Positions 1 through 59,113 of a stretch of DNA of 64,000 bases are shown one piece after another; position 1 is the stretch's first letter, and each line of letters opens with the position of its first letter. The stretch is from Candidatus Levyibacteriota bacterium. Its GTDB lineage: Bacteria; Patescibacteriota; Microgenomatia; Levybacterales; UBA12049. The stretch lies in NCBI GenBank assembly GCA_016214555.1, contig JACROF010000003.1, positions 64,930 to 128,929 on the forward strand. Reading direction: 5' to 3'. The position numbers and the translations under genes are program-made. The notes beneath the pieces were generated by a model. It did not search any database and had not been told where the DNA came from. It saw only the letters and a list, made by a program, of their open reading frames with translations.

Positions 1-1119
1 TTGGTAAGTTTGAAATCTTTTGCATTTTGACCTTCATTTTTGACTTTTAACTTTTGGCTTTTGATCTCTATCACTGTCGGTCCTCCAACTGAAGATAGAG
101 TAATTTTTTGATCCAATCCTTTAAGTAAATAAGTTGTGCCGTTAACGTCTGGTTGAAGACCTTGCGGACCAAACGAAATAAAAGTTCCTCCAACCTCCGG
201 AGGCAGCCTATCAATAACTAAGGTATATGATTTGGACGAACCAATATTTCCCGATAAATCTATCGCCCTTGCCTTGATTTGATAATTACCATCCTCAAAA
301 AGTGAGGGTGTAAATTCGAAATTCGAATTTCGAAATCCGAAACTTTTTGGATTTTTGTTATTTGAATTTGCTTCGAGTTTCGTGCTTTGTGCTTCGAATT
401 TATCAACCGGTATCCAATTTTTCCCACCATCAGTTGAGTACTCTACCTTCGCTATCCCGGGATTAACAAGTCCAGTATCTGATGCCTCACCCGTAATTCT
501 GGGTCCTTCCCTAAATGGTTTTGAAAAATCAAGATCAATCGTGACAAATGGTGCGGTTTTATCGGTAGGCTTTGGAGTCGGAGTAGGTGTAGCCGTGGAC
601 GAGGAGCTAGACGAAGATTTGGGGGTAGGAGTAGCTGTAGCACCTGGAGCTGATGTTGGCGTTGGAGTAGGAGTCGAAACAAGCACAACCGAAACTCCAC
701 TACTTGCGTAACATTGATCATAGCTACTACCGTCTGATGAAGCAAAACCATCTATCTGTAGCTCCTCTTCTGTTATAACTAGACCACTAATAGTAATTGT
801 GAATGTCACCGTTTGGGAACCAGGGATACTTCCTCCTGAGAAAGTTATTTCTCCTCCATTTGCACTTGTATTCCACCCCGTGGCACTTCCTCCAGTAAAC
901 TCCATATATCCCGTATCAGGATTGAGAAATCTTACAGAACTGGCACTATCCTCACCAACATTACTAATGCCAATCGTTACCGATCCTGTTTGATCAACGC
1001 CAACAGATGCACTTGAACCTACCACATCGCATGAAACAGCTAAGGCTGGTTTAGCTACCAATGACATAAAAACACCAAGGAGCAAAAAAAGGAGGATAAA
1101 AAGTCTTAGGGCAGGCATA
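1..1119 (-). CDS. Partial secreted protein; its 3' end lies beyond the window start. It has a Sec signal peptide, an N-terminal beta-rich domain, a Pro/Thr/Ser linker and an Ig-like C-terminal region.
   Basis: Manual translation of the reverse strand from the ATG at 1119 stays open to position 1. The N-terminus MPALRLFILLFLLLGVFMSLVAKPALA is a typical signal peptide. A linker TPTPTPTSAPGATATPTPKSSSSSSTATPTPTPKPTD follows. Then comes a KVEYSTDGGKNWIPV...GNYQIKARAIDLSGN Ig-like segment. The listed ORFs 355..711(+) and 452..751(-) are shadows of this gene. Confidence 0.55.
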
Positions 1120-1155
1120 CAAATTCAGTATAGTATAATTAACAAAAAAACATAC

Positions 1156-3129
1156 ATGAATTTATTACATCAAATACAAACCCTCAATAGTCAAGCATTT
1201 ACTTTAAAGCAAAATGGCCAGATTGACAAAGCTGAGCAAACTCTAAAAATAGCTCTAAGACTTGCCCCAAACCACCCACTTACTAATTACAACCTAGGAA
1301 CATTATTAAAAAATCAAGGAAAACCCGACGAGGCGCTCGCTTTGCTAAAAAAAGCAGCAGATTTCACTCACGACTCGACTGCTCCACTGAACAATCTAGC
1401 ACTATGCCTTAACCAACTAGGACTAGTAGATGAGGCAATTCAAACCTATAAAAGAGCGCTCAAAATCGAACCTACCAACCCGCTTCTAAACTACAACATC
1501 GCCAACCTCTATCTTGAAAACAATATGCAGCAAAAGGCTATAGTTTTTTACAAAAAATCCATAGAATATGAACCCAAAAATCCTCTAGCTTATGCTAATT
1601 TAGGTATTTCCTACTTTCAATTATCTGATAAAAAGGCGATATTACCTTTTAAAAAAGCCATAGAACTTTCACCACAAACAACTCAATACTACTACACTCT
1701 AGCCTATATTTATGAAAAAGCTGGGGATACTAAAAATGCAATCAAATACTACGAAAAAACAATACAAATGGAGCCTAATTTTGAATATGCCTTGGCGCAT
1801 CTTTTTACCCAGAAAAGAAAAATCTGTGATTGGACTGGGCTTGAAAGTATTAGTCAACTCCTTGATCAAACCCACAAAGAATCTCCTTGGTCATCGATAA
1901 TGCGAACTGAAGACTTGAAATCTAATTTGATTGCAGCAAAAGGATACAGTCAGGAACTCGAGGGTAAAATTTCTAAAAATTTATTTTCATTTAAAAAAGG
2001 GGGTGGGAGACAAAAAATCCGCTTGGGCTATATCTCTGCCCACTTTGGCAACCACCCCATTACTTTTACTACCGCTTCAGTTATCAAAAATCATGATAGA
2101 TCAAAGTTTGAAGTTTTTGTTTACTCTTACGGCCCAAATGATAAAAGTACATATAGAAAAAACATAGAAAACGCCGCTTCTCAATTTATTGATGTAACAA
2201 AACTAACAGATAAAGAGGCTGCTAAGAAAATCTTTGATGACCAGATTGATATTTTGGTAGACCTTTCAGGCTATACGCAGGGTAATAGAGCTGAAATTTT
2301 AGCTATGAGACCCTCACCTCTGCAAATAACATGGGCGGGACTTTGCGCAACAACAGGCTCTGATTTTATTGATTATTTTATTGCTGATTCAGTCATAGTT
2401 CCAAAAAAAGATGCGCAATTTTATTCAGAAAAAATGATTTATCTTCCCCCCTGCTTTTGCCCTATTCAGGACATAATTCCCCTATCTAGAAAAAAACTTA
2501 CTAAAAAGCACTTTGGATTACCTGAAAATACATTCATTTTTGCCAGCTTTAATCAAATGTATAAGATCGATAAAACAATCTGGGAGACTTGGATGGAAGT
2601 TTTAAAAAAAGTACCACAAAGCGTTCTCTGGGTATTTATCCAAAATAATGAAGGCAAAAACAACCTTAAGCGCCACGCTCAAAATCAAGGGATCAACCCA
2701 AATCGTATTATCTTCACCAACCAGTTATCTCTTGAAGAATTTTACTCAAGTATCTCACTTGCCGATTTGGCGCTTGACACGCTCGTTTATGGTGGAGGCA
2801 CTACCTCCTATCATAGTCTCCTAAAAAAAGTCCCGCTTATCACCCTCAGAGGCAAGCATCCAGCATCGCTTTTCTCAACAAGCATTCTCAAAGAGTTAGG
2901 GCTTGAAGAATTGAGTACAAAAAATATTCAAGAATATAAAAATATTGCAATTAGTCTTGCTACAGATAATGACAAATTAATGATGATAAAACATCATCTC
3001 ACGCCTGAGAAATTCGACAAAACAATTCTCAATATTGGACAAAAAGTCTCCCACCTAGAAGATGCATATCAACAAATTTGGCACAATTATCTTCTAGGCA
3101 ATAAACCAAAACAAGTTGAGGTTAGTTAG
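1156..3129 (+). CDS. TPR-repeat protein fused to a GT41 (OGT/SPINDLY-like) glycosyltransferase domain
   Basis: The N-terminal ~230 aa carry multiple 34-aa TPR-like repeats (e.g. AIQTYKRALKIEPTNPLLNYNIANLYLENN). The C-terminal part contains the characteristic GT41 block LGYISAHFGNHPITFTT...FEVFVYSYGPND...IDILVDLSGYTQGNRAEILAMRPSPLQITWAGLCATTGSDFIDYFIAD, which resembles eukaryotic OGT and bacterial HMW1C/NGT catalytic regions. Confidence 0.8.
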   Translation: MNLLHQIQTLNSQAFTLKQNGQIDKAEQTLKIALRLAPNHPLTNYNLGTLLKNQGKPDEALALLKKAADFTHDSTAPLNNLALCLNQLGLVDEAIQTYKRALKIEPTNPLLNYNIANLYLENNMQQKAIVFYKKSIEYEPKNPLAYANLGISYFQLSDKKAILPFKKAIELSPQTTQYYYTLAYIYEKAGDTKNAIKYYEKTIQMEPNFEYALAHLFTQKRKICDWTGLESISQLLDQTHKESPWSSIMRTEDLKSNLIAAKGYSQELEGKISKNLFSFKKGGGRQKIRLGYISAHFGNHPITFTTASVIKNHDRSKFEVFVYSYGPNDKSTYRKNIENAASQFIDVTKLTDKEAAKKIFDDQIDILVDLSGYTQGNRAEILAMRPSPLQITWAGLCATTGSDFIDYFIADSVIVPKKDAQFYSEKMIYLPPCFCPIQDIIPLSRKKLTKKHFGLPENTFIFASFNQMYKIDKTIWETWMEVLKKVPQSVLWVFIQNNEGKNNLKRHAQNQGINPNRIIFTNQLSLEEFYSSISLADLALDTLVYGGGTTSYHSLLKKVPLITLRGKHPASLFSTSILKELGLEELSTKNIQEYKNIAISLATDNDKLMMIKHHLTPEKFDKTILNIGQKVSHLEDAYQQIWHNYLLGNKPKQVEVS

Positions 3130-3131
3130 TA

Positions 3132-3641
3132 TCACTTGAGATAATCAGCTCTCAAAAACCCCATAATGAGTGAGTCAACGTACCGATTGCCTTTCTTCAC
3201 ATGATGTCGCCTGACACCTTCTTTTTTAAAACCAAGTTTTTTATAAAGCGATATAGCTGGCGTATTGAAATCCAAAACTTCAAGTGAGACTTTATTGAAT
3301 TTTTTCTCTCTTAATAAAAAGTCAATAAAGAGCTTGAGAGCCTCAAATGCAAATCCCTTTTTTCTATACTTAGGTTCAATATCCGCACCCACATACACAT
3401 TTTTATTTTGTAAGTCCCATGCAGATGTACGGATGTAGCCTACTTTGCTACCCTCAAACTCAATAACGAAATACTGAGGATTTGTCGTTTTAAACCATCT
3501 TTTGGCATCACTCAAGCTAAATTTTCGACTATCATGAAGATATGCTACGCATTTATTTCGAAGGCTTACAAAAAAATCAAGATCTGTGGATTTCATAGGT
3601 CGAATGATGATTCTTTCTGATCGTAAATTAATTTCAAACAT
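3132..3641 (-). CDS. GNAT-family N-acetyltransferase
   Basis: 169 aa with a GNAT acetyl-CoA-binding core (VGADIEPKYRKKGFAFEALKLFIDFLL...LYKKLGFKKEG). It is convergent with the GT41 gene. Confidence 0.75.
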   Translation of the reverse strand: MFEINLRSERIIIRPMKSTDLDFFVSLRNKCVAYLHDSRKFSLSDAKRWFKTTNPQYFVIEFEGSKVGYIRTSAWDLQNKNVYVGADIEPKYRKKGFAFEALKLFIDFLLREKKFNKVSLEVLDFNTPAISLYKKLGFKKEGVRRHHVKKGNRYVDSLIMGFLRADYLK

Positions 3642-3647
3642 TGTTAT

Positions 3648-4775
3648 CTAGAACCCTTCAAGAATAGACGCAATCTCTTTTGCTTTTTTGATACTCACCC
3701 ACTGTCCAATTGGAATGGCAATATTCTCCTTGTCAAATGTATCAACTCCGGGAAGTTTTCCTGTTGTAAGCTTGCGAAATACAGGATAAATATCATTTCG
3801 CCTGTGCGCCTCTACCGCCTCAACGCCAATTTTTTTTAGGGCTTTAACAAGTTTTGATCTATTTTCAGAGCTTCCGCACAGAACGATATATAACCAATAG
3901 TTCGGCTTGGAGTCAGGAAGAATTGTTTGAGGTTTTAAAGACTTGCTTTTTGATAGTGCTTTGTCATAAATTGCTGCTATTTTTCTTCTATAAGCAATAC
4001 GGCTAAGTAGGTATGGGATTTGGCCTAATCCAATTGAAGCTGCAATATCAGTCATCTGCATTTTGTACCCTACTTCAGAAATAGGATACTCCCAAAAAGT
4101 CTCTCCCCAGACCCTTTGTTCCCTATCAATCCCATACCATCGTAATGTTTTTGCGCGTTTTACATCTTTCTTTCTTTTACAAACCAAAACTCCTCCGTCA
4201 CCTGTTGTTATTATCTTTGTAGCTTGAAAACTAAAAGCCACAAAATCTGAATGAGTACCAATTGGTTTACCTCCGTATTCAGATCCTAATGCCTGAGCTG
4301 CATCTTCAATAACTGGAATACCAAACTTCTTAGCAATCCTGTTTATTTTGTCAATTTCTGAAGAAACACCTCCAAAGTCTACCACCATTATTGCCTTAGT
4401 ATGTTTGGTAATTTTTCGCTCAATATCTTCAGGATCAATATTACCCGATTCAGGATCAACATCTGCCCAGATTGGAATCCCGCCCTCAAGAACAATCGCG
4501 GCATTGGTAGCAAAACAAGTCATCGGAGTAGTGATAACTTCCCCTTCTTTAACTCCAGCTAGTCGCAGAGCAAGCTGCAAAGCTGAAGTTCCGGAGTTTA
4601 GGGCAACAACATTTGGGTTTTCAATAACCTTTCCGATATCTTCTTCGAACTCCTTAACCCTTGGCCCATCTCCCCCAATCCACCCAGATCTTAAAGTCTT
4701 ATTTACTAATGCGATAGACTCTTTAGTCACACTTACTTTGTATGAAGATGTATTCTTAATCCTTTTCATGGCCAA
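3648..4775 (-). CDS. DegT/DnrJ/EryC1/StrS-family PLP-dependent sugar aminotransferase
   Basis: Typical family motifs: NSGTSALQLAL, the catalytic lysine context DFVAFSFQATKIITTGDGGVL, and IEDAAQALGSEY. Paired with the GNAT this resembles PseC/PseH or PglE/PglD-type amino-sugar synthesis. Confidence 0.9.
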   Translation of the reverse strand: MAMKRIKNTSSYKVSVTKESIALVNKTLRSGWIGGDGPRVKEFEEDIGKVIENPNVVALNSGTSALQLALRLAGVKEGEVITTPMTCFATNAAIVLEGGIPIWADVDPESGNIDPEDIERKITKHTKAIMVVDFGGVSSEIDKINRIAKKFGIPVIEDAAQALGSEYGGKPIGTHSDFVAFSFQATKIITTGDGGVLVCKRKKDVKRAKTLRWYGIDREQRVWGETFWEYPISEVGYKMQMTDIAASIGLGQIPYLLSRIAYRRKIAAIYDKALSKSKSLKPQTILPDSKPNYWLYIVLCGSSENRSKLVKALKKIGVEAVEAHRRNDIYPVFRKLTTGKLPGVDTFDKENIAIPIGQWVSIKKAKEIASILEGF

Positions 4776-4847
4776 ATAATACCATAATGAAACAAAAATA
4801 CAATTTGAAGATTGAAAACAAAGGCTAATACATAGTAAATTAGATAC

Positions 4848-7800
4848 ATGCCAGCAGTCCGCGACTATACTTTTGCTTATGAAGCCTCCACAGCAGATGC
4901 AGGAATTACAATTCCCATGTGCGGATATGCAACAAATGATCTTTTAATAGCATTTGCCATCTCAGACACAGGTACTCCAGCATGGGTTCCCTTGAGTGAT
5001 GTTTCAGGGGCAGCTTCTGAAGATGCTGGAACTCCCGTAAGCGATTTAACCGATGCTGTATCAGCTACTGCAAATGATATGGAACTAACCCCAGCAGTAG
5101 GAAATGCAGGAACCGGGGACGGGTATTATTTTGGTAGCACACAACCATTCAACATGGTTAGAGTTAACGTGGGCACTGCTGCATCTGCTTCTTGGACTAT
5201 TACTTGGAAATATTGGAATGGGTCATGGACCACAATTCCCGGCTACACTGATGGAACTACAAATTGGACAGCAGGGACCGGAAATCGTGACGTTACCTTT
5301 AATCCTCCCAACGACTGGGCTACCACGACGGTAGTGTCACAAAATATTTACTGGGTAAAAGCTGAGATAACTGCATTTACTTCCCTCACTACAAGACCTC
5401 TAGGCACTCAAGCCTGGGTACGAAACTGGACACAGCTTTTTGGGCGCAATAATACACTTGCTTCTATCTGTTATTTCAAAATCGCCTCATCATCAACCTC
5501 AGAAGAAGACCTCTTGATGTATACCGCAACAAATGAAACGTATAACGGAAGTATCACTTCAATCCGAGATATTAATACCAAAACCCCATTCGGGGTGGCA
5601 AGCATAGCAAGCTATTCAGAGACGAACGCTGATAGTTATGCAAGTCTTGGAAACGGAACAATAACTGGAGTTGCACAATCATTTACCAATACTGCAGTAG
5701 TCAATACTATTGCAAAAGTCAGATTTTATCTTAAAAAAAACGGGACACCAACTGGTAATGCTACGGCAAAACTCTATACCCATTCAGGAACATTAGGCAC
5801 ATCATCTGTTCCAACCGGCACTGCGCTTGCGGTTTCAGATGCCTTTGATGTGTCAACGTTGACTACCACTGCAACCTTATCTGATTTTGTATTCAGTAAT
5901 TATACAAACTGGTATTCTATGGTAGCATCAACTAATTACGTAGTTTCAATTGAATATTCAGGAGGTGACTCATCAAATTATGTCCAGGTTGGCTACGATA
6001 ACAGCTCTCCCTCCCATGGTGGAAACTATTCTGAAAACACGGGGTCATGGGCTGCAAATTCAGGCAGGGATGTAGCATTTTATCTCCAAACTTTCGCAGC
6101 AAATGACAGCACCCAAGCCGCATCTGCCAGGTTTGCAATGCCTCAGATTACAACTGACGCAAATAATGCACTTGTACTTTACTTTAACTCCACCTCAGGA
6201 ACTGCAGGAACCCCCTCTATTATTGAAGGGCCCGTATTTAGTCTTATCGCAGGAGACGGAACTGCGGAGTCTCATGCAGTGGGATGGGGATTTAAAGCCA
6301 CGGCGGGATCAACACCTAACAATGTTTATGCTACAGCTGCTGTTACAGGGGCAGGCGTCAAAGCTGTTATCCAAGTCTCCCCTCCCACAACAGGAGCTAC
6401 AATAATCCCTGCCTATACTCCACAGGATGACTGCACCTACATAGATCCTATTGCTGGTGTAAGTGCATATAATTCTAATACTGCCTTGGCTGCTACTGCA
6501 GATACTAACTTTGGTACGTCTCTTGGAGGCTTTACTGCTAATGATGCAACCGTAGCTGCTATGGCTGATACCGGAATTAACTCATTCCACTCACTTGGAG
6601 GAATGACAAATGCTGCGACAGCAAAAACAATTAGCGGGGCAGAATTGGTTCTCGCAGCTGCAAATAGATTTAATATGGGGACTAAAAATCTGCTTTGCCA
6701 TGTGTATGCCGCCACCCCTGCACATATGCAAAGATTCTCAGCCGTATCTTCAGAGCGTGGTTTTTGGATGGGAGTCCGATCAAATACGGGGTCTGGAGGA
6801 GCAACAACAGGATATAAAATCTGGCAGGTACATGGAGTTGATGCTCCATGGGATTTTGGGTTCCATGTACCAATCATTGTAAACTCAGGCGCAGGAAATA
6901 CTAAGGCAACATCGGGAACTCTAGATACAGCAGTTATTGCATCTGTTGGTTTTTGGAATAGCTCTATAGGAGCTCTTACTAATCAACAAGGAGTAGGATC
7001 ATTATGGCTTATGGACAAAACGGTTGTTTGTGGAGGAAATAGTGCAGAACCTCTCAATGTGCCAGGTATTGTCAAAACAATTGCTCGCGGCAAAGAACGT
7101 CAATCAGGAATTCTTCAAGGAGCAAAGCAGATGCTTTTGCTTCAAGATATTCAGCTTGGTGATGGCGGAACAGACCCAACATATCTTGATCTAGATTCGA
7201 CAGCGACTGAATTTCCAAGACAATATAATGCTGCGACAGCCCAGGTTAATTATAATTCAACGGATAACATCATAGGAATTACCTATTATCCCGGAGCTTC
7301 GGATACTATCAAGCATCGCAACTCAATCATATCAAGCAGTAGCAGATACAAATGGGGGTTACATGCTTCCGCATCCACTTCAGCATCGTATGATTTTTCA
7401 GGTCTTATCGTAATCGGCGCTGGAATAATCACCCTTAATAAAGCAATTACCATAACCGAACTCACCATTAACGACTACTCAACTCTTGATGTCTCAGGAC
7501 TTACCTTTAATTTAGGAACTATATTAAATATGCCTGCTACCAGCGACTCTATAACTACCTCAAGTAGTACGGTTATTTCAAATAGCTCAATAACCACAAC
7601 TACCGTTACGGCTGGTAATAGATGGGCCTCTGTTGCAACAGCTGATCTAGATATGTTCTCAGGCAATACCTTTACCGGTTCGACAACGAGCGGACATGCT
7701 ATCAGGCTCACATCAACGGGAACAGTTAGCTTTTCAGGGAATACATTTACTTCTTATGGCCCGGCAGCAAGAAGCTTTGATGCGTCAACGGACGTCAATA

Positions 7801-8603
7801 CAACAACAAATATCATTACTCTTGACGCAGCCCATGGGTACAACAACGGCGAACCAGCGTACTTTCAGGATCAAGGAGGAACCGCCCCAACAGGTCTTAC
7901 CGATGGCAATCTTTACTATGTAAGAAGTGAATCCTCAACCACCATCACTCTTTATGACACATCAGCACACGCCATAGCTGGAGGCGCCACAGGACAAGCA
8001 GACATCACTGCCACAGGCTCTGGAACACAATATATTTATAGTGCGGCAGCAGCCATCTACAATAATTCTGGTGGGGCTGTAACTATCAATGTCACCAACG
8101 GAGGAAGTACACCAAGTATTAGGAATTCAGACGGATCATCAACTACAGTCAATAATTCTGTCAATCTCACAATCACCGTCATTGATGCGAGTACAAATCC
8201 TGTGCCAACAGCCCAGACCGCCATCTATCGAACAAGTGACAACGTTGAGCTTATGAATGAAGATACAGAAACAGTAACTGCTGGCTCATTTGTTGTCGGG
8301 GTAAAATACACCATCGTCAGCGTTGGCTCAACAGACTTTACAGCAATTGGAGCCGCTTCAAATACAGTTGGCGTTGCTTTCACGGCAACTGGTGTAGGAT
8401 CGGGAACTGGCACTGCCTCAAATGGTATCGCAACAGCCACGTTTAGTTATATTACTGATACGGCAGTATATGTCAGAGTCAGAAAATCTTCCACAGGTAC
8501 TACAAAATATACACCAGTTTCAACAACAGGAACTATCACGAGCACAGGATATTCTCTAACAGTTACTCTAACAAGTGACACGATAGCCGATCCGACCTTG
8601 TGA
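4848..8603 (+). CDS. Giant Ser/Thr/Asn/Gly-rich protein (1251 aa), paralog family member 1; no signal peptide; function unknown
   Basis: Long uninterrupted ORF. The N-terminus MPAVRDYTFAYEAS...ITIPMCGYATNDLLIAFAISDTGT is paralogous to the N-terminus of 10547..13114. Shared central blocks: SIIEGPV...AGVKA.IQ, CGG...PGIV...IQLGDGGT.PTYLDLD, GITYY.GASDTIKHR. Shared C-terminal blocks: AAHGY..G...Y.QDQGG and YVRVR. It also shares a VTF..P.DWA.T...QN.Y block with 13367..16246. Confidence 0.7.
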   Translation: MPAVRDYTFAYEASTADAGITIPMCGYATNDLLIAFAISDTGTPAWVPLSDVSGAASEDAGTPVSDLTDAVSATANDMELTPAVGNAGTGDGYYFGSTQPFNMVRVNVGTAASASWTITWKYWNGSWTTIPGYTDGTTNWTAGTGNRDVTFNPPNDWATTTVVSQNIYWVKAEITAFTSLTTRPLGTQAWVRNWTQLFGRNNTLASICYFKIASSSTSEEDLLMYTATNETYNGSITSIRDINTKTPFGVASIASYSETNADSYASLGNGTITGVAQSFTNTAVVNTIAKVRFYLKKNGTPTGNATAKLYTHSGTLGTSSVPTGTALAVSDAFDVSTLTTTATLSDFVFSNYTNWYSMVASTNYVVSIEYSGGDSSNYVQVGYDNSSPSHGGNYSENTGSWAANSGRDVAFYLQTFAANDSTQAASARFAMPQITTDANNALVLYFNSTSGTAGTPSIIEGPVFSLIAGDGTAESHAVGWGFKATAGSTPNNVYATAAVTGAGVKAVIQVSPPTTGATIIPAYTPQDDCTYIDPIAGVSAYNSNTALAATADTNFGTSLGGFTANDATVAAMADTGINSFHSLGGMTNAATAKTISGAELVLAAANRFNMGTKNLLCHVYAATPAHMQRFSAVSSERGFWMGVRSNTGSGGATTGYKIWQVHGVDAPWDFGFHVPIIVNSGAGNTKATSGTLDTAVIASVGFWNSSIGALTNQQGVGSLWLMDKTVVCGGNSAEPLNVPGIVKTIARGKERQSGILQGAKQMLLLQDIQLGDGGTDPTYLDLDSTATEFPRQYNAATAQVNYNSTDNIIGITYYPGASDTIKHRNSIISSSSRYKWGLHASASTSASYDFSGLIVIGAGIITLNKAITITELTINDYSTLDVSGLTFNLGTILNMPATSDSITTSSSTVISNSSITTTTVTAGNRWASVATADLDMFSGNTFTGSTTSGHAIRLTSTGTVSFSGNTFTSYGPAARSFDASTDVNTTTNIITLDAAHGYNNGEPAYFQDQGGTAPTGLTDGNLYYVRSESSTTITLYDTSAHAIAGGATGQADITATGSGTQYIYSAAAAIYNNSGGAVTINVTNGGSTPSIRNSDGSSTTVNNSVNLTITVIDASTNPVPTAQTAIYRTSDNVELMNEDTETVTAGSFVVGVKYTIVSVGSTDFTAIGAASNTVGVAFTATGVGSGTGTASNGIATATFSYITDTAVYVRVRKSSTGTTKYTPVSTTGTITSTGYSLTVTLTSDTIADPTL

Positions 8604-10135
8604 TTTTAAGTCTTAATCATGCAAAAATACTCCAAAAAGAAAGGTTGACGACAGCAGCAAGGATTGCTGCAACAGAACACATACAAATTATTGAAGGAGC
8701 AAGACAACTTCTTGTCTCGCTCTCAACATCCCCATTTATACTCTACCCTGACGAAAACTGCTCGCTATATTTACAACAAGTACTAAATAAATATCAACGC
8801 TACAATAATATTGCACTCGCAAATCTTCATGGTGATGCGATATGCAATGCTGCAGCACTTCCAGAACAAAAAATTGTCAATGTGTCCGATCGTTATTTTT
8901 TTAAAGAGGTGATAAAAACAAATGAATTTACCGTTGGAGAATATTCTTTAAGCAAGACAACCAAACAACCCGTAATATCACTTGGCTATCCGGTCCATGA
9001 CTACCAAGGACGTCTTATTGGTATTATCTATTCATCGCTTGATCTAGATTGGCTAAAAAATCTCGTATCAAGCCTGTCGCTTGGGGACAATTCCGTGCTA
9101 TTAATAACAGATAAAAATGGTAAAATTCTTGCCTCAAATCAAAACTCATTTCAAGCAGGCTCTCTCCTCTCTGACAAAGGAATAGTTCTTAACCTAAAGT
9201 CAGACTCAGGATTAATTGAACCACAAGATACTAAGAACTATTTCTTTGCTTACAATCAAATCGGTGGTTCGAGTTCAAACCCTTTTGCTTTCGTAGGGCT
9301 CCCAAAAGCTACAGTTTATCAAAAACCTAACGAGGACTTTGCTAAATCTCTCCTCTTCTCCGGATTGATAGCACTCCTCTCTTTGACAGGAGGATGGTAC
9401 ATAGGCAACTCGCTCATAACCAAACTTGTTATGGCTGTACAAAAAGTAGACCAACTTAGGCAGGATTTTGTCTCTTTAGTATCGCATCAACTTCGGACAC
9501 CACTAACCGCAATAAAGTATTTTTGTGAAATCCTCCTTTCAGAATCCTCAGGCAAACTTAATAAAAAACAGAAAGAATTTATCACTGACACACTTACTTC
9601 AGCTTCACGGTTGAGCCAGCTGGTAGGAACTCTTCTTGATATCGGAAGACTTGAAGAGGGAAAAATGCTTCTTAATTTTAAGGAAGTATCAGTTGAAAAA
9701 TTGCTAGAAAACAGCATGAAAGATATCGCTCCCTTTATCAAAAAAGAGGGCCTCAAGCTGTCGCGGGTTAAAAAAAGAGGCGTACCTAGCAACATTTTTG
9801 TCGATGAAAAACTAATGATACAGGCCGTGTCAAATCTCCTCTCAAATGCAGTAAAATACAGCGACCCAAAATCACTTATTGAAATTATTCTCTCAAAATC
9901 AAACAATGGCATACTTTTTGAGATCAAAAACAGAGGGATAGTCATACTTCCTGAAGATAAGTCCCATATCTTTTCAAAATTTTACCGATCAACTATGGCA
10001 AGAAAAAAAGCAGACGAAGGGTCTGGATTAGGACTTTATCTGACAAAACTTATTATAGAATCACATGGGGGCAAAATCTGGTTTGAAAGCGATAAAAATA
10101 GTACGTCATTTTTCTTTACTCTAGAGATTAAATAA
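8600..10135 (+). CDS. Sensor histidine kinase with an extracytoplasmic Cache-like domain; it appears to lack an N-terminal TM/signal segment
   Basis: HisKA box VSLVSHQLRTPLTAIKYF. HATPase_c motifs NLLSNAVKYSD, GSGLGLYLTKLIIESHGGKIWFES. One TM helix (LLFSGLIALLSLTGGWYIGNSLI) precedes HisKA. The first ~250 aa are Cache-like (YQGRLIGIIYSSLDLDWLKN...LLITDKNGKILASNQ) but no hydrophobic segment precedes them. An in-frame stop lies immediately upstream, and the start (GTG at 8600) overlaps the stop of the preceding giant gene. Confidence 0.8.
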   Translation: MILSLNHAKILQKERLTTAARIAATEHIQIIEGARQLLVSLSTSPFILYPDENCSLYLQQVLNKYQRYNNIALANLHGDAICNAAALPEQKIVNVSDRYFFKEVIKTNEFTVGEYSLSKTTKQPVISLGYPVHDYQGRLIGIIYSSLDLDWLKNLVSSLSLGDNSVLLITDKNGKILASNQNSFQAGSLLSDKGIVLNLKSDSGLIEPQDTKNYFFAYNQIGGSSSNPFAFVGLPKATVYQKPNEDFAKSLLFSGLIALLSLTGGWYIGNSLITKLVMAVQKVDQLRQDFVSLVSHQLRTPLTAIKYFCEILLSESSGKLNKKQKEFITDTLTSASRLSQLVGTLLDIGRLEEGKMLLNFKEVSVEKLLENSMKDIAPFIKKEGLKLSRVKKRGVPSNIFVDEKLMIQAVSNLLSNAVKYSDPKSLIEIILSKSNNGILFEIKNRGIVILPEDKSHIFSKFYRSTMARKKADEGSGLGLYLTKLIIESHGGKIWFESDKNSTSFFFTLEIK

Positions 10136-10155
10136 TGGTAGAATGAAATAAAATC

Positions 10156-10530
10156 ATGCCTAAATCATATAAAGTCCTTATCGTTGAAGACGATAAATTT
10201 ATACTAAAAGCAATTCGCTACAAATTTGAAGAAGCAAAATTTAACGTTAAAACTTCACAAACTGCCGAAGGAGGGTTAACATTGCTTGAAAAATGGACTC
10301 CTAATGCAATTATATTAGATATTTTGCTTCCGGGGATTGATGGATATGCTTTTTTACGAACAGTCAGAAACCACCCCAAATGGAGCACCATCCCTGTTAT
10401 CGTTGCCTCAAATATCAATGAGCCTCCAGATATAGAACCAGGAGAAAATACCGGATACAAAGAGTATATTGTAAAATCTGATCTTGATCTCAATAGTCTT
10501 GTTGAAAAAGTCAAAACACTCGCCAGATAA
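10156..10530 (+). CDS. Stand-alone response-regulator receiver domain (CheY-like)
   Basis: 124 aa. It has the acidic pocket KVLIVEDD, the phospho-acceptor context AIILDILLPGIDG, and a conserved T/K downstream. It lies directly after the kinase. Confidence 0.8.
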   Translation: MPKSYKVLIVEDDKFILKAIRYKFEEAKFNVKTSQTAEGGLTLLEKWTPNAIILDILLPGIDGYAFLRTVRNHPKWSTIPVIVASNINEPPDIEPGENTGYKEYIVKSDLDLNSLVEKVKTLAR

Positions 10531-10546
10531 GATATTCAGATTTCAC

Positions 10547-13114
10547 ATGCCAGCAATACGAGATTTCGCAAGTAATTACACTACTGTTACAACAGGCACA
10601 ACTATCATCATTCCGGTTCCTGCTGTTGTTGAAAACGACCTCATGATCGCAATACTCGTAGCAGACACAGGAACAGGGACATGGTCCTGCACAGGGTGGA
10701 CAGAGCTTTTAAGGCAGACTAACACATCGCAACTTTGCGTTATGTACAGGATAGCAACGTCAAGTGAGCCTGATGACTACACCTTTACGAGAAGTACCTC
10801 AGAAACTTTTAACGGCCGCATAGTTAGTATCCGAGATATCGATACAACCAATCCCTTTGGCAGTACGCCAACATATACTGTTACGAATCAATCATCAGCT
10901 GCAAAATATACACTCCCCCAGGTCACTACCACAGTTGCCAACTCCCTCATATTATATGCAGTCTCAAATTCAGCAGCTGGTGTACCTTCAATAATTGAAG
11001 GGCCAGTAAGTCTTATCGTTGGAGAAGATGGAAGCGCTGAGTCTGGAGGTGTCGCATGGAGCTTTATGCCATCAACTGGTGCAAGTCCAAATAATATAAC
11101 GTGTTCAAACATTTCAAGCGGTGCTGGAGTAAAAGCAGCAATACAAATTGCTGCTCCGTCAGGCGGTGCGACCATCGTGCCAGCATACTGCTCATCTGAC
11201 GCTAGTATTTATATTAATCCCATTCATGGAACAACCGCATATAACTCAGACACAGGACTTGCCGCAACCTGGGACACATTAATTGGAACTTCCCTTAATG
11301 GAATCACACTCGCTGACGCGACTGTCGCTGCCGCAGCCGACGTAGGAATCAACCCCTACCATTCTGCAGGAAGACTAACATCGATATCGGGTAGTAGAAA
11401 TTGGTCTGGAGCAGCGCTTGATTTAGCATCTGGAAATAACGTAAATCTTTCTGGAAAAAATATTCTTGTACATACGGGCCCATCAACTCCTGGGCAAATT
11501 CAAAGATTTGGCGCAGCAGCTTCACAAAAAGGGACAGCAATCGCAATGCAGTCTTCGTCAGGGAATTGGAAGGCATGGCATGTGCATGGGAAAGGAACTC
11601 CTTATGGATACCAAAGAGATGTCCCTTTAATTGTCAATTCTAGTAATACAGGTGGTCTCCTAGAGTCAGCAGGCACATTTGATGCCTCTGCGGTTGATAT
11701 TTTTGGATTTGCTGTGGCAGGAGGAGGAGTATCAACTACAATTTGGGATTTTTATTCCCTTTGGGTACTTGATATCGTCACAATTTGCGGCGGAATAGCA
11801 AGTTCTCCCATAGACGTTCCTGGTATCGTTCTTGCCGCTGCCGACGGACATGAAAGAAAATCAATAGTGCAACAAGGAACAGGACAGGCAATTGTTTTTC
11901 AGCCAATTCAGATCGGAGATGGAGGAACTCACCCAACCTATCTTGACCTTAACGCTACAGCTATCGAATTCCCAAAACAGTATGATCTCACAAGCCTTCA
12001 GGTAAATTATTGCTCTGTTGATAATGTTGCAGGGATAACGTATTATGCAGGCGCTTCTGATACGATTAAGCACCGCAGTTCGGTTATTTCAAGTCCTAAT
12101 AAATATCATTGGGGATTTCATGCCTCAACCTCAACCTCTGCAACGTATGACTTTTCCGGTCTTCAAGTAATTGGTGCTGGAACTATTACTTTAGTAAATA
12201 ATTTATCATTGTCAGGCATAACTTGGTCTGATTGCGACAACTTTTCATCAGCTGGTACATATTTAGATAACTGCACGATTAAAACCACAGTTGCAACATC
12301 CGCTCTTACAGTCTCATCAACTACAAATATGGGCAGGATCACCAACTGCACTTTCAATACTAACAATGATGGCGATATCGGACATTCAATAGAGCTAACT
12401 GCAACAGGTACTCATGCTTTCGATAATATCGCTTTTGCTGGTGGCGGAGTGGCCAAGAGAAGTTTTAATACTACAACCGGGGTTGATGCGGGAACTGACA
12501 TCATTACAGTCGATGCAGCCCATGGGTATGTTGACGGAGATGCTATTTACTACCAAGACCAAGGAGGATCACAAAATATGGGGTTGACTGATGGAACGCT
12601 GTACTATGTAAATGCTCAATCTACGACCACCCTTTCATTCCATACAACAAAAGCAGATGCAATTGCGAACACAAATAAAGTTGCGCTCACTTCAGCTGGT
12701 GGAGAAACACATTCTATCTATTCTGCAAAAGCTGATGTCTACAACAACTCAGGAGGTGCTGTCACAATTAATGTATCAAATGGTGGAACTGTCCCAACTG
12801 TTCGAGAATCAAATGGGTCAAGTACGACGATAAATAATTCTGTAACTCTTGAAATAAACGGGGTCGCCCAAGGCACACGCTGCTATATCGAGGCGGCACT
12901 TGGAGGACCAGAGACATCAGGAACAATCCTCATGAATGAGGAAGCAGACGCACTGGGCATTGCTACCCAAACATATAACTACACATCAAGCCAACCAGTA
13001 AGAATTAGAGCAAGACTCGCAGGCTACATACCCTTTGAAACAACAGGAACTATTGCATCAACAGGCCTTACAATTACTGCTGTTTGGCTAGAAGACTCCA
13101 ACTACACACCGTAA
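10547..13114 (+). CDS. Giant Ser/Thr/Asn-rich protein (about 855 aa), paralog family member 2; no signal peptide
   Basis: Start chosen at the internal ATG giving MPAIRDFASNYTT..., which matches the MPAVRDYTF start of paralog 1. The ORF track begins 21 codons upstream at an alternative start. Conserved blocks are the same as in 4848..8603; the middle is divergent. Confidence 0.65.
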   Translation: MPAIRDFASNYTTVTTGTTIIIPVPAVVENDLMIAILVADTGTGTWSCTGWTELLRQTNTSQLCVMYRIATSSEPDDYTFTRSTSETFNGRIVSIRDIDTTNPFGSTPTYTVTNQSSAAKYTLPQVTTTVANSLILYAVSNSAAGVPSIIEGPVSLIVGEDGSAESGGVAWSFMPSTGASPNNITCSNISSGAGVKAAIQIAAPSGGATIVPAYCSSDASIYINPIHGTTAYNSDTGLAATWDTLIGTSLNGITLADATVAAAADVGINPYHSAGRLTSISGSRNWSGAALDLASGNNVNLSGKNILVHTGPSTPGQIQRFGAAASQKGTAIAMQSSSGNWKAWHVHGKGTPYGYQRDVPLIVNSSNTGGLLESAGTFDASAVDIFGFAVAGGGVSTTIWDFYSLWVLDIVTICGGIASSPIDVPGIVLAAADGHERKSIVQQGTGQAIVFQPIQIGDGGTHPTYLDLNATAIEFPKQYDLTSLQVNYCSVDNVAGITYYAGASDTIKHRSSVISSPNKYHWGFHASTSTSATYDFSGLQVIGAGTITLVNNLSLSGITWSDCDNFSSAGTYLDNCTIKTTVATSALTVSSTTNMGRITNCTFNTNNDGDIGHSIELTATGTHAFDNIAFAGGGVAKRSFNTTTGVDAGTDIITVDAAHGYVDGDAIYYQDQGGSQNMGLTDGTLYYVNAQSTTTLSFHTTKADAIANTNKVALTSAGGETHSIYSAKADVYNNSGGAVTINVSNGGTVPTVRESNGSSTTINNSVTLEINGVAQGTRCYIEAALGGPETSGTILMNEEADALGIATQTYNYTSSQPVRIRARLAGYIPFETTGTIASTGLTITAVWLEDSNYTP

Positions 13115-13366: not shown

Positions 13367-16246
13367 ATGGCTGATACGATTTTATCCGGTAGATGGGTTG
13401 TCTATTACGAAGCTGAGAATCGCCAAAAGAGAATTTGGCGTGATACTTCTGTTTCGCCGACGACGACTGACACCGTCAATGCTCTCTACTCTGCTCTGCA
13501 GGGTCATTTTGATGAGCTGGGACAGATGGACGATGGTGTCCCCATGTCTGCACAGACCCCGACTGAGTACACGATCGGCATCATCGACGCAGGAGACACA
13601 GATCCTTGGTTTATTGACAGAACATCAATTGAATACCTCACTGGCGGAGCTCTCAAAACAGCTTCGTGGGACAGAGTTACTTCCAGCAATACAGGCATTG
13701 TACGATTCACCTACACCACAGGCACTGACTTTGATACGACCGATATCGGTAGAGACATCACCAATGCGACAGGCCTAGACTCAGGAACGCTCCTAGACTT
13801 TAATTCAACGGGTGCAACAAAGTATGCGTGGGTACGACCTGACTCAAATGCCGCTGCAAATGACTGGGACTCCACCTCAGGAACGGTTGCTGTATCAAAT
13901 GACTCATTTGCTCAAGTGTGGCAGGTAGACAACACTACCTTTGTAGACCAATCATCTGGAGCAAATGATGCCACCAATGCCAACTGGACTGTTTTCCCTG
14001 CTTCTGAGGATACATCAGATTATGTTGCGATGGGATACAGGCAAAAGTTCAAAAAAGTGATCTTTGATTATGCTAACGGTACTGCAGGAGTTGGAGGAAC
14101 AGTCACATGGCAATACTGGAACGGATCTACCTGGGCTGCTCTGTCTGGTGTATCAGACGGCACAACAGGCTTTACCGCAACAGTAGGTGATGGCAAAGTG
14201 CTTACCTTTACTGTTCCATCAGACTGGGCAGCAACATCACTTAATGGCTCACAAAATCTCTACTATATCAGAGCACTTGTATCTGGTACCTACTCTACCA
14301 ATCCTATTTTGGACCAAGGATTTATCGGGGGAACAGGCTCGGTAACCCAAGCAACAGCCGGAGCATCTGCTGGAGAGTCACTCTGGGCTAACATCTACTC
14401 AATCGGTACTATTGAAGCAAATACACATCTTTATATTCAACAAAATGGCTCAAATCTCACTGCCTACAAAGCCTCAACTGACTGGTGGAGCGATGGGCAT
14501 ATTGACATTTTGGTCAATGTAAAAGAGCTTGGTACCGAGACAGATGAGGGATACATCAAGGTATTTGCCCGCCAGTACTCAAAGACTTATTCCTACTACA
14601 CAGTAGACTTAACTGCCGGAGGACGAAATCCTATCCCGCTTCAGACAGGAAATGATTTGGACAACCAGACCGGCTACAAAACAATAGCATTTGATAACGG
14701 TACTGGAACTCTTGCTGTGGGAGACGTCATCACTGTCAGCGCAACAGCACGAGCAATCGTCACAGCTGTGACTGGTGCAGCATCAGCAACAGGAACATTT
14801 GACTATTATCTTATCGGCGATCCTATTACCGATTTAACAAATAACGAAGCATTTACTTCAACCACAGGCAAAGCAGCAGACATTAACGGCTCATCATCAA
14901 ATGCCGGTCCCGCAGCCCTTGGCTCCCCACCTAGCATTACCTTTGGAGGATTAACAGCAGGTGGAACTGAAGACATTGATGAAAATGGAACTGCTGAAAA
15001 TTATTCAATTACTATTGACTGTAACCAAAACGCCCTAGCAGATGTTTATGAATATACCAAGTATATTACAAGGCGTGGAAACACAGGAGACATCGATGCT
15101 GGCTCACTCACCATCGAGGGACAATTCTATTTAGGAACTGAGTATAGGCTGAAATACACTGGCTCAGTAACTGGAACTATCGTTGACGGCAATACGGTAA
15201 CACAAGAAACATCAGGAGCTACAGGTATCGTTGTTAATCACAACACAACAGACAAAATCATCATGCTTCGCAACACGAGAGGAACCTTTGCTACTCACGC
15301 TAGCACCCATACACTTACTGACAACACAACCGGCGGAACAGTTGAGATTAATTCAGAGGCAACAGCCGTAACACCAGTTGGCGCAGCTCCCTTTGGAACA
15401 TTCGCTGGAGGAACATTCTTCGTCGCTACAGGTATCGTACTCACCGATTATTTGACAGCAGAAGCAAATAATTTCCAGCTCAAAACTGATGAAGGAACTG
15501 TTGTCGAAGCGCCAACCAAAGTCACTATCTCTGTTGGTAACACGAGATCCGGAGACAAAGTTGGAGTATTCCGTCTTTCTGGATCAGGCGGATCAATCAT
15601 CAAAGACAGATACAACGCCACTGTTCAATCAGCCCTCGCAACTACAGCTGTCATGGGCTCCTCAATTGCCGTTGACGAACCAGGAAGAACTGCCGGAGGT
15701 GTCATAAGACTAGTTGATACCTCAGCGAGTGCTGAATACAGAATTAGATTTAGTAGCTGGGCTTCAAGCACATTTACTCTTGCAAGTAGCGACATAGCCT
15801 CAGCTGATTCGGGAACAAATACCACAACTATCGTAGAATCTGGAGCATTCGCCTCTTCAAAAGTCGGAGATCTCGTAGTTAATGTAACGAGAGGAAATGC
15901 TGTTTCATACATTACTGTTATTACTGACAGCAATACCGTGACGATATCTCCTGCAATTACAGGCCAAACAACAGCTGACAACATCAAGCTTAACGTCTTA
16001 CCTGTTGCAACAACCACCTCCCCACAAGACACCTGGTATGTACCTATGATTGATACATACGAAACAACAGGTAGCGCTGGAACACCAGGCACAGAGACCG
16101 CACTTATCACTTATCTTGCTGATATATATGTAAGGGTAAGAGCAAGAAATGCAGGAAATATTATTCCTTATGAAGCTGACTCTACCGTAACAAGTACCGG
16201 TATGAGTAACAGTATCATTAGAACAACTGATACAATATTTACCTAA
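13367..16246 (+). CDS. Giant Ser/Thr/Gly-rich protein (959 aa), paralog family member 3 (more divergent); no signal peptide
   Basis: Shares the block TVTWQYWNGSTWAALSGVSDGTTGF...KVLTFTVPSDWAATSLNGSQNLYYIRA with paralog 1 (WTITWKYWNGSWTTIPGYTDGTTNW...VTFNPPNDWATTTVVSQNIYWVKA). Also shares the C-terminal IYVRVRARNAGNIIPYE block with both other paralogs. Confidence 0.65.
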   Translation: MADTILSGRWVVYYEAENRQKRIWRDTSVSPTTTDTVNALYSALQGHFDELGQMDDGVPMSAQTPTEYTIGIIDAGDTDPWFIDRTSIEYLTGGALKTASWDRVTSSNTGIVRFTYTTGTDFDTTDIGRDITNATGLDSGTLLDFNSTGATKYAWVRPDSNAAANDWDSTSGTVAVSNDSFAQVWQVDNTTFVDQSSGANDATNANWTVFPASEDTSDYVAMGYRQKFKKVIFDYANGTAGVGGTVTWQYWNGSTWAALSGVSDGTTGFTATVGDGKVLTFTVPSDWAATSLNGSQNLYYIRALVSGTYSTNPILDQGFIGGTGSVTQATAGASAGESLWANIYSIGTIEANTHLYIQQNGSNLTAYKASTDWWSDGHIDILVNVKELGTETDEGYIKVFARQYSKTYSYYTVDLTAGGRNPIPLQTGNDLDNQTGYKTIAFDNGTGTLAVGDVITVSATARAIVTAVTGAASATGTFDYYLIGDPITDLTNNEAFTSTTGKAADINGSSSNAGPAALGSPPSITFGGLTAGGTEDIDENGTAENYSITIDCNQNALADVYEYTKYITRRGNTGDIDAGSLTIEGQFYLGTEYRLKYTGSVTGTIVDGNTVTQETSGATGIVVNHNTTDKIIMLRNTRGTFATHASTHTLTDNTTGGTVEINSEATAVTPVGAAPFGTFAGGTFFVATGIVLTDYLTAEANNFQLKTDEGTVVEAPTKVTISVGNTRSGDKVGVFRLSGSGGSIIKDRYNATVQSALATTAVMGSSIAVDEPGRTAGGVIRLVDTSASAEYRIRFSSWASSTFTLASSDIASADSGTNTTTIVESGAFASSKVGDLVVNVTRGNAVSYITVITDSNTVTISPAITGQTTADNIKLNVLPVATTTSPQDTWYVPMIDTYETTGSAGTPGTETALITYLADIYVRVRARNAGNIIPYEADSTVTSTGMSNSIIRTTDTIFT

Positions 16247-26781: not shown

Positions 26782-26790
26782 TAGAGTGGT

Positions 26791-27912: not shown

Positions 27913-27915
27913 GCT

Positions 27916-28854: not shown

Positions 28855-28924
28855 CCCTTCAATAACTGAGCCTTTATATACGGGATTTTCAACCTCTTTG
28901 TGAGCAGCAAGACCAATCTCAGAA

Positions 28925-58068: not shown

Positions 58069-59113
58069 TAGTATAGTAGTATTAATTTTAAAAATGAGAG
58101 ACTATCAATCTATATATAAATATATTAATAGATATCAATAAATTATCTTACAAAGCTTCGCAAGAAAATCGATAACTAGTGGCACAAAGCAAAGTAAATC
58201 TCATATACAAGAGCAACATGGTAAGGAAAAGGACTAATTACGGTAGTGGAAAATGATAAGGCTATATTATTTGTGCCTAAAAAATAAAAATAGATTGAAT
58301 TATCAATCTAAATATAACTATTATTTTTCTATCAGTCTAATGACATGATTGACAAAACAACCCGAAAGCGAAATAGACATGAGGCTAATTATTGAAAAGT
58401 CATAACTTATAAAAAAGGTAAGGACCAATTTTTTACCCCTTTCACACAAGTAATGGGGAAGAAAAAATTAACAGTAGCTAAAAATCTTCTTGGAAATATA
58501 TCTAACTATATCACCTATCAAAAATACCGACGTAGGAATATTATGATATCTTTAGATATATTCACTGTTTTTTACCGAGAACGACATAGTCGAAAAAAGA
58601 AAGAAATATCGTTGTGAAATAATAAAAACTTATCAATTTTCTTATTATTTTTGTATCTTTATTAAGATATCTAAAAATATCTAAATATATCAATACTATT
58701 TTACTCTAGGGTATTGACAGCCTCAATCACACTTGCGAACATATTAATAGATGTATTTATTAATATATGTAAGATTTTCATAAAAGAGATAGGTGATAAT
58801 CGGTATAATCTATATAATCTCAAGGCTAGAAACCAAATCACAATCTTTAAAAAATCTTACAAAAATAGAATTCATCAAGAAGGAACAAGCTATGAAAAAT
58901 CATAAAGTTGGGCACGATCTTATTTTCACAAGTAGAAAGTCGAATTCATCCATGAAAACGGCTGTGAAATATTCCTATGAGACTCACTCCTCTACTGGGG
59001 AGATGGATAGAATCATGATAATCCTTTCAGCAGTTGCACTGAGCTTCTTTGTTAGTCAATTCTTTTTGATTATTGCAAGATAGCGAATGTATCTAAACCA
59101 ATATGGACTTATC

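Follow-up and report, generated by a model that had tools for sequence, protein, structure and literature searches.

A 64,000-nucleotide stretch (the window) of a metagenome-assembled genome (MAG) assigned at NCBI to Candidatus Levybacteria, within the Microgenomates of the Candidate Phyla Radiation (CPR), encodes a putative protein glycosylation system beside a family of phage-type structural proteins. Its central component is a GT41 glycosyltransferase of 657 aa with tetratricopeptide repeats (TPRs; 1156..3129, + strand), which lies together with genes for a GNAT N-acetyltransferase (169 aa; 3132..3641, − strand) and a DegT/DnrJ/EryC1 pyridoxal phosphate (PLP)-dependent nucleotide-sugar aminotransferase (373 aa; 3648..4769, − strand) directly upstream of the gene for a 1251-aa all-beta protein (4848..8603, + strand), which by homology and fold is related to tail/baseplate-type proteins of phage virions. 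A preliminary description of the window had placed the three enzyme genes here, and profile matches far beyond chance bear this out. With about even confidence, we interpret the locus as a cassette that is lineage-specific within Microgenomates and O-glycosylates proteins in the cytoplasm, the adjacent 1251-aa protein being the likeliest acceptor; the enzyme activity, donor sugar, O-linkage, acceptor, and export route are those that we infer from the comparisons below. The phage-type identity of the so-called giant proteins is new.

The Glyco_transf_41 profile (PF13844) matched the 657-aa protein with an E value of 1.9e-89 (300.8 bits; cut-off, 25 bits), which assigns it, as had been proposed, to a family of cytoplasmic protein glycosyltransferases. 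About five to six TPRs (TPR_1, E 1e-33) occupy residues 1-215 (nt 1156-1800), and the N-Cat (residues 286-435; nt 2011-2460) and C-Cat (residues 447-653; nt 2494-3114) lobes both align with those of human OGT (hOGT). The intervening domain of the metazoan enzymes (∼120 residues) is missing, query residues 435-447 spanning hOGT chain residues 704-829. hOGT was the best PDB relative (E 4.8e-120), followed by SPINDLY (SPY; 1e-69), XcOGT (7e-54), and TtOGT (2e-50), and no HMW1C/NGT chain appeared among the best 60 of 130 PDB matches. By sequence, the enzyme is OGT-like, not NGT-like; of the earlier label "OGT/NGT-like", the TPRs and the OGT/SPY matches sustain the first half, and the second had to be dropped. 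For the same reasons, O-glycosylation is the better guess for the linkage, and N-x-S/T sequons would be irrelevant to it; the 22 sequons previously counted in the 1251-aa protein were found again. A sequence alignment further revealed Asn at the hOGT ladder position in four consecutive TPRs (NYNLG, LNNLA, NYNIA, and YANLG), with Thr and His instead of the ladder Asn at the two TPR positions closest to the active site. In OGT and SPY, the Asn ladder of the TPRs has a substrate-binding role (PMC9715652).

To locate the active site, hOGT residues (1036 numbering) were mapped onto the enzyme via a HMMER pairwise alignment and a 67-sequence MAFFT alignment. Residues H558 (H300 here, within the motif HFGNHP), Q839 (Q467), Y841 (Y469), K842 (K470), and T921/T922 (T549/T550) are kept. 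The activity of hOGT is almost abolished by K842M and Q839A (PMC2556091, Clarke et al. 2008), and the Lys equivalent to K842 in SPY (K665) is essential (PMC9715652). A GT41 domain devoid of catalytic residues had been considered beforehand; the catalytic Lys is present as K470. In the clade to which the enzyme belongs (see below), the equivalents of K842, H558, Q839, and Y841 and a GGG(T/A)T motif are invariant, and T549/T550 are invariant or near-invariant. The changed positions are D925 (H553), K898 (L526), H901 (F529), R904 (S532), H920 (G548), T560 (I302), and C917 (Y545). hOGT mutants in D925 and K898 are inactive, and the D925 equivalent of XcOGT hydrogen-bonds the UDP ribose (PMC2556091). 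D925, H901, and R904 are nearly invariant in 60 other bacterial GT41 homologues, and clade members carry H/M/L at the D925 position and L/I/T/S at the K898 position; the pocket pattern of the window enzyme occurs in only five sequences of the alignment (window, L002, L004, L005, and P0008; L and P numbers denote loci and proteins compared here). How large the sugar pocket is depends on the residue at the C917 position (Y744 in SPY), and a Tyr there clashes with GlcNAc (PMC9715652, Zhu et al. 2022); Tyr545 occupies this position as do Y744 of SPY, Y463 of XcOGT, and Y419 of TtOGT. Because the nucleoside contacts are lost (D925 to H, K898 to L, H901 to F) and a Tyr stands at the C917 position, UDP-GlcNAc would be an unlikely donor. 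The GT41 is predicted to be an active enzyme with conserved chemistry residues, rebuilt nucleoside and sugar contacts, and a donor other than UDP-GlcNAc; a dTDP (deoxyribonucleotide) sugar or a 6-deoxy sugar is only a guess.

The clade is small and consistently linked to the large proteins. The nearest GT41 relative (P0002) is 59% identical, the next matches falling below 40%, and a clade profile found only 3 proteins of ∼1000 bits among 5.8 billion (next match, 653 bits). A metagenome scan for clade members returned mostly generic GT41s plus two more distant loci (L054 and L064), and a scan of viral contigs (IMG/VR) returned none. In all six of the readable clade loci (window, L002/L003, L004, L005, L015, and L016), the GT41 has as a neighbor a protein homologous to the 1251-aa protein, with 50-66% identity. 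The gene order of L004 is that of the window, including the upstream secreted protein, a histidine kinase (HK), a response regulator (RR), and other large proteins; L002/L003 reads GT41, GNAT, DegT, two small open reading frames (ORFs), and a 1292-aa orthologue (65% identity). Whereas the window, L002, and L004 carry the DegT and GNAT cassette, the co-directional loci L005, L015, and L016 carry a Methyltransf_11-like methyltransferase (MT) and a GalE-like short-chain dehydrogenase/reductase (SDR) between the GT41 and the large protein, and these genes overlap or abut in L016 (GT41, 4944-6707; MT, 6700-7173; SDR, 7170-7997; large protein, 8001-11828). NCBIfam typing of the alternative SDR and MTs is non-specific (GalE-like at 130 bits, below the cut-off). 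Across the clade loci, orthologues are only 38-66% identical, and adjacency is kept while the genes between the GT41 and the large protein are exchanged. The GT41 is thus constantly paired with the large-protein family, and its sugar-tailoring genes can be swapped, as in protein glycosylation islands. A functional tie of the cassette to the adjacent signal-less proteins, first suggested from the window, gains from this adjacency in six of six loci, overlapping co-directional operons included. Five of the GTDB representative MAGs compared (L004, L005, L007, L008, and L010) are labeled "uncultured Gammaproteobacteria" or "Pseudomonadales bacterium" yet carry a Microgenomates-type locus at 43-66% protein identity; these labels are probably taxonomic mislabels.

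Together with a two-component system, the large proteins form a module that is conserved in Levy-, Roizman-, and Woesebacteria. Downstream of the 1251-aa gene, and on the same strand, the module comprises a dCache HK (8600..10135) and a single-domain RR (10156..10530), both assigned by profile searches, an 855-aa paralogue of the 1251-aa protein (10547..13114), a 959-aa protein (13367..16246), and, as its last member, a 434-aa right-handed beta-helix protein (17225..18529). The 855-aa paralogue is 43% identical to residues 423-1245 of the 1251-aa protein and lacks the insert at residues 47-420; the 959-aa protein shares one domain and a C-terminal module with the 1251-aa protein. Pfam, NCBIfam, and PHROG searches on the large proteins yielded no informative family, and their ∼100 homologues are all unnamed; the beta-helix protein showed a weak PHROG tail-fibre match. 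Ser and Thr make up 23-26% of the large proteins (26% in the 1251-aa protein) versus ∼12% of housekeeping proteins in the window. Consistently with the preliminary description, no N-terminal hydrophobic signal was found in the large proteins, nor do they have a twin-arginine signal; their N terminus, MPA(V/I)RD, is nearly invariant in the family and, in the structural model, starts a folded beta domain as its first strand. Since the large proteins lack a signal peptide, modification would take place in the cytoplasm before their release or display.

Genomic context and structure both relate this family to phage virions. A homologue with 53% identity (P0125) is flanked by a T4-type baseplate gene and two tail-tube genes on one side and by a tail-sheath gene on the other, and a further homologue (P0150) lies in a one-directional array amid genes for a SAM lyase, PNKP, an M23 peptidase, and a CCA-adding enzyme. 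The IMG/VR scan revealed 34 loci with large-protein homologues, which stand beside baseplate, tail-tube, and sheath genes in L017 and L022, after terminase and portal genes in L021, and after tail proteins in L039. Among the isolated phages of INPHARED, only short partial matches to cyanophage baseplate wedge proteins were found. AlphaFold modeled the 855-aa paralogue with a predicted local distance difference test score (pLDDT) of 87.4 and a predicted template modeling score (pTM) of 0.81 and residues 1-470 of the 1251-aa protein with a pLDDT of 84.4, both as all-beta structures. The best viral match in BFVD was a full-length uncharacterized Caudovirales protein (E 1e-53; TM 0.66), and the best PDB matches of the N-terminal part were one chain of the LME-1 phage portal-tail complex (E 7e-9) and, from the phi812 baseplate, chains with E values of 8e-5 and 1e-4. 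The large proteins are cellular copies of a phage tail/baseplate-type protein, and they probably bind receptors. The non-classical export formerly proposed for them is recast by this homology to virion proteins. Homologues also occur on very long IMG/VR contigs, namely L025 (597 kb), L027 (211 kb), L049 (158 kb), L045 (154 kb), and L047, the last of which holds the 959-aa, 855-aa, and beta-helix types in a cellular-type arrangement; some of these five may be cellular contigs or proviruses, not free phages.

Sequence variation within the 1251-aa family is uneven. Between the window and L002, the beta-helix segment at residues 885-944 is 98% identical in protein but 78% in DNA, indicating strong purifying selection; recent recombination in this stretch was considered and rejected, given the nucleotide identity of only 78%. 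Over the last ∼130 residues, the L002 and L016 proteins bear no relation to that of the window (16-38% identity), but the L004 protein is 68-75% identical; the C-terminal tip (within window positions 7500-8603, residues 885-1251) is mosaic, as in tail fibres. Residues 47-90 were tried as a disordered acceptor tract and rejected on account of AlphaFold pLDDT values of ∼89-91 (residues 51-90) and 71 (residues 41-50). The dCache HK and the stand-alone receiver (8600-10530) are wedged between the phage-type paralogues, a position kept in at least six genomes (including L004 and L006-L010), which suggests signal-controlled expression of the phage-derived proteins. Of the two distant GT41 loci, L064 contains a secreted neighbor, the GT41, and a Methyltransf_24/rhamnosyl-O-methyltransferase-like gene, then proteins sharing domains with the module, and L054 contains a protein with the C-terminal motif of the beta-helix protein, the GT41, a GT4, and TatC. 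This 42-aa motif (GASASEIADAVWDE...SAGRTLKDAKTRATLASLQ; window 18400-18529) is 62% identical to the C terminus (L054 2412-2537) of an otherwise unrelated 402-aa protein beside that GT41, and both proteins may use it as a common module for attachment or assembly. A TatC gene lies just 3' of the phage-type module in the window (19582-20364, + strand) and also in L054 (5847-6587).

The two enzymes encoded between the GT41 and the 1251-aa protein have the features of a sugar-tailoring pair. The DegT_DnrJ_EryC1 profile (PF01041) matched the aminotransferase with an E value of 1.3e-91 (308 bits), and the PLP lysine is present, the Lys of its SFQATK aligning with that of SFQALK in 4zwv. Ranked by PDB score, its relatives are 4zwv/4xau ("putative aminotransferase", 208 bits), CalS13 (172), ArnB-type enzymes (170), perosamine synthase (157), PglE (128), PseC (2fn6; 121), and WecE (108). 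On this ranking the protein is classed as a nucleotide-sugar 4-aminotransferase. The GNAT protein (Acetyltransf_3, 1.4e-15; Acetyltransf_1, 5e-14) is generic, has AAC(6') and SpeG as its best PDB matches, and reaches PseH (4ri1) only with an E value of 4e-4; its probable role is N-acetylation of an amino sugar. The DegT and GNAT genes are translationally coupled: the latter lies 6 bp 3' of the former on the same strand in the window, and both genes overlap in L002 and L004, a spacing that fits consecutive steps of transamination and N-acetylation. No gene for a dehydratase (4,6-dehydratase included), SDR, NeuB-like protein, or cytidylyltransferase occurs among the ORFs of at least 150 aa in the 64-kb window. 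With neither dehydratase nor SDR there, the 4-keto precursor has to be supplied from outside the window. Upstream, one Logan contig alone extends the sequence, and its ∼1 kb merely completes the gene of a secreted 676-aa protein.

As we envisage the cassette, the DegT enzyme would add an amino group to an NDP (nucleoside diphosphate)-4-keto sugar made elsewhere in the genome, and the GNAT enzyme would then N-acetylate the product; the resulting donor would most likely be an NDP-4-acetamido-4-deoxy or 4,6-dideoxy sugar. The GT41 would act as an inverting enzyme of the OGT/SPY type, whose TPR superhelix holds the acceptor polypeptide along the Asn ladder while the GT-B domain transfers one sugar to Ser/Thr via the conserved Lys/Thr-Thr/His machinery; the acceptor would be the 1251-aa protein, perhaps along with its paralogues. 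A wider but rather doubtful reading is that a domesticated phage tail/baseplate-type receptor-binding protein in CPR bacteria is diversified through cytoplasmic O-glycosylation by a new GT41 subclade with a rebuilt pocket and plug-in donor cassettes, in an arms race with the phages carrying homologous proteins or in episymbiont-host attachment. On this reading the donor would not be UDP-GlcNAc but, e.g., a 4-acetamido-4,6-dideoxy sugar or a methylated 6-deoxy sugar linked to dTDP or another NDP.

Several observations weigh against glycosylation of the 1251-aa protein by this cassette. Adjacency does not identify a substrate, and in the window the GT41 gene, the DegT-GNAT pair, and the 1251-aa gene form three transcription units of differing orientations. 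The window also lacks a gene for the enzyme needed to supply the 4-keto sugar. Replacement of D925 and K898 (by H553 and L526) means that the GT41 could be a non-catalytic TPR protein. The 855-aa paralogue and residues 1-470 of the 1251-aa protein were modeled as compact and folded, with no obvious disordered Ser/Thr tract to enter the TPR lumen. A secreted Ig-like/Redoxin protein, namely the 676-aa neighbor, co-occurs with the GT41 in four loci. Furthermore, no GT41 was found within 10 kb in any of the 34 phage loci, nor was a DegT, GNAT, MT, SDR, HK, or RR gene, and at least five cellular loci (L006-L010) carry the large-protein module without a GT41; these hold the HK, the RR, and the 855-aa-type paralogue, most of them also the 959-aa and beta-helix types, the GT41 absence covering 8-10 kb upstream and as much downstream flank as is present on each contig. 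The GT41 unit is thus accessory, being polymorphic in presence and absence, and glycosylation is not a general requirement of the large-protein family.

The competing explanations differ mostly in the acceptor that they assign to the GT41. One of them, which we judge improbable, makes the large proteins mere neighbors and has the GT41 modify the divergent secreted Ig-like/Redoxin protein, or other envelope proteins, before Sec export. The 676-aa protein (1..1119, − strand, for its 5' part; the gene runs off the window start and was called on Logan contig L001) contains a signal peptide (MPALRLFILLFLLLGVFMSLVAKPALA) and Ig-like, CarboxypepD_reg, and Redoxin domains, and its homologues lie directly upstream of, and divergent from, the GT41 gene in the window, L004, L016, and L064 (gaps of 22-36 bp; 36 bp in the window) and are absent from loci without a GT41. 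HMW1, which is glycosylated in the cytoplasm before export, offers a precedent (PMC3983070), and the secreted protein is a real rival as acceptor. However, its place is taken in L002 by a LytR_C protein with N-terminal similarity only, no match to it was found in L015 or L054, and it is the large protein, not the 676-aa gene, that the overlapping operon ties to the GT41. A similarly low probability attaches to the view of the GT41 as either an OGT/SPY-like general regulator acting on many cytoplasmic proteins or a TPR scaffold without catalytic function, its position reflecting inherited order or hitch-hiking on an accessory island. Bacterial OGT homologues with many or unassigned substrates exist, as exemplified by Yersinia HmwC (PMC11329713), XcOGT and TtOGT have no detectable O-GlcNAc activity (PMC9715652), and nucleoside-contact residues essential in hOGT are lost; the loci compared, in addition, come from related genomes. 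Inherited order would nonetheless have to account for an adjacency that persists at 38-66% orthologue identity while intervening genes swap, and for sugar-tailoring genes that always accompany the GT41; likewise, the clade-wide invariance of K842, H558, Q839, Y841, and GGG(T/A)T is unexpected for a pseudo-enzyme.

Less probable still is an anti-phage system in which the host decorates its own phage-receptor or decoy proteins, or homologous phage tail proteins, with strain-variable sugars and so blocks adsorption or assembly. Swapped sugar cassettes, a mosaic C-terminal tip, and the polymorphic presence of the unit would fit diversifying pressure, and the large proteins are homologous to proteins of phages that presumably infect these bacteria; nevertheless, PADLOC returned only generic domain noise for the ten locus genes, and no known defense genes lie nearby. 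A role of the three genes in making a cell-wall or capsular polysaccharide, instead of in protein modification, seems to us very unlikely. DegT and GNAT enzymes are common in polysaccharide pathways, and GT4 and WecG/TagA genes occur 20 kb away in the window, but the characterized GT41 members in the cited literature all modify proteins, and no gene for polysaccharide export, a polymerase, a flippase, an ABC exporter, or an initiating transferase was found in the surrounding 6-10 kb of the window, L002, L004, or L016, so that the conserved polysaccharide operon considered in the preliminary description does not surround the genes in these relatives. We give the least credence of all to the PseC/PseH- or PglE/PglD-type pathway of that description, in which pseudaminic acid or bacillosamine would be transferred to N-x-S/T sequons by an NGT-like GT41. 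PseC (TIGR03588) and PseH (TIGR03585) are indeed the top NCBIfam names for the DegT and GNAT proteins, yet their scores of 248.6 and 51.2 bits fall far short of the equivalog cut-offs (423.5 and 93.1), and 4zwv/4xau, CalS13, ArnB, and perosamine synthase outrank PglE and PseC. PseB, PseG, PseI, and PseF are all missing among the window ORFs of at least 150 aa, and the GT41 carries TPRs, not the all-alpha domain of NGTs. GT41 enzymes use NDP-sugars, not CMP-nonulosonates, and PglD belongs to the left-handed beta-helix enzymes and not to the GNATs. The pseudaminic-acid pathway is not supported.

Protein O-glycosylation by the GT41 of the window would have relatives among known systems. The TPR-GT41 Ogt of Synechococcus elongatus (Synpcc7942_0051) adjoins pilA and is needed for cytoplasmic glycosylation of PilA (PMC9306852). 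Like this enzyme and OgtA of Nostoc punctiforme, the GT41 studied here combines TPRs and a GT41 domain with no intervening domain and has the catalytic Lys (K445 there, K470 here), and it is encoded beside the gene of its putative target, as Ogt is beside that of the extracellular structural protein PilA. Unlike the cyanobacterial enzyme, which uses UDP-GlcNAc, it is changed at the D925, K898, H901, and C917 positions and is accompanied by dedicated sugar-tailoring genes, and the protein that it would modify is no pilin but one of 1251 aa and phage type. The HMW1C/NGT systems of Haemophilus and Actinobacillus likewise place a GT41 gene beside that of a very large protein, the HMW1 adhesin target of HMW1C (PMC3983070, PMC3012730), a surface protein whose glycosylation takes place in the cytoplasm and precedes export; however, NGTs have no TPRs and attach an N-linked hexose to N-x-S/T from plain UDP-Glc/Gal, whereas the enzyme in question appears OGT/SPY-like. 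Human and Drosophila OGT and SPY are its best sequence relatives and have in common with it the TPR Asn ladder and the catalytic Lys/His/Thr-Thr, and SPY also shares the Tyr at the C917/Y744 position; human and Drosophila OGT differ from it in their intervening domain and in the ribose-binding D925 carboxylate, replaced in the clade by His/Met/Leu.

Flagellin glycosylation islands, i.e., FlmG/Maf with Pse/Leg genes, resemble the locus in their soluble TPR-bearing glycosyltransferase, strain-variable rare-sugar genes, and signal-less structural protein, and the TPR domain of FlmG binds its flagellin substrates (PMC7591256). FlmG and Maf nevertheless use CMP-nonulosonic acids and are not GT41 enzymes, and the window has neither a flagellar export system nor a Pse pathway. 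A further likeness is to the glycosylation of phage virions, in which signal-less phage structural proteins are modified in the cytoplasm. In mycobacteriophages, capsid and tail-tube proteins are glycosylated by phage-encoded glycosyltransferases. Those transferases are not of the GT41 family, whereas the locus described here is chromosomal and its phage counterparts lack a GT41 in 34 of 34 cases; virion glycosylation is alluded to in PMC11256854. If our interpretation is correct, the locus would give a first indication that CPR bacteria, whose surface biology and host attachment are almost unknown, possess a system dedicated to protein glycosylation; in the full-text paper library searched, no paper mentioned both "Candidate Phyla Radiation" and "GT41". 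GT41 chemistry would then include, besides GlcNAc, fucose, and glucose, rare amino or deoxy sugars, and protein glycosylation would be linked to receptor-binding proteins of phage origin that a cellular genome encodes. The clade is a natural experiment on re-specification of the GT41 donor pocket (D925, K898, H901, and C917), and the whole putative system consists of 4-5 adjacent genes.

Gene boundaries and the wider window add the following details. The GNAT gene is convergent with the GT41 gene across a 2-bp gap. For the DegT gene, supported by Pfam and an independent gene call on the Logan contig, that call and the sequence make the ATG at 4769 (373 aa) likelier as the start than the TTG at 4775 (375 aa). 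The 78-bp intergenic region between the divergent DegT and 1251-aa genes (4770..4847) holds one promoter-like site (4812-4841, + strand), without above-chance signal, and a promoter/terminator scan of positions 900-5100 remained at chance level (13 promoter-like sites versus 12.6 expected). Housekeeping genes of the window include those for LeuRS, MreB, NDK, TatC, and ComEC; since these are present and no phage hallmark genes were found in the window, the locus is chromosomal. Ten unassigned window ORFs had no PHROG matches either, so the window is not an obvious prophage. An Rfam scan of the window returned a tRNA-Arg only, with no rRNA. The ORF-poor 3' end, considered as a possible rRNA region, was rejected as such because it has no match to rRNA or another Rfam family and consists of one long ORF: a single stop-free frame of at least 1634 aa, far longer than the 1251-aa ORF, runs through 59097-64000 (+ strand) and exits the 3' end. 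A separate glycan cluster at 25504-29725, 20 kb away from the GT41 locus, contains two GT4 genes, a sucrose-6-phosphate-phosphatase-like HAD gene, and a WecG/TagA-family transferase gene, and it probably serves a wall glycopolymer. Finally, a 321-aa ORF at 43186-44151 (− strand) encodes the N-terminal domain of ArgRS together with only about the first 70 residues of its catalytic domain, and it may represent a split, interrupted, or truncated arginyl-tRNA synthetase.

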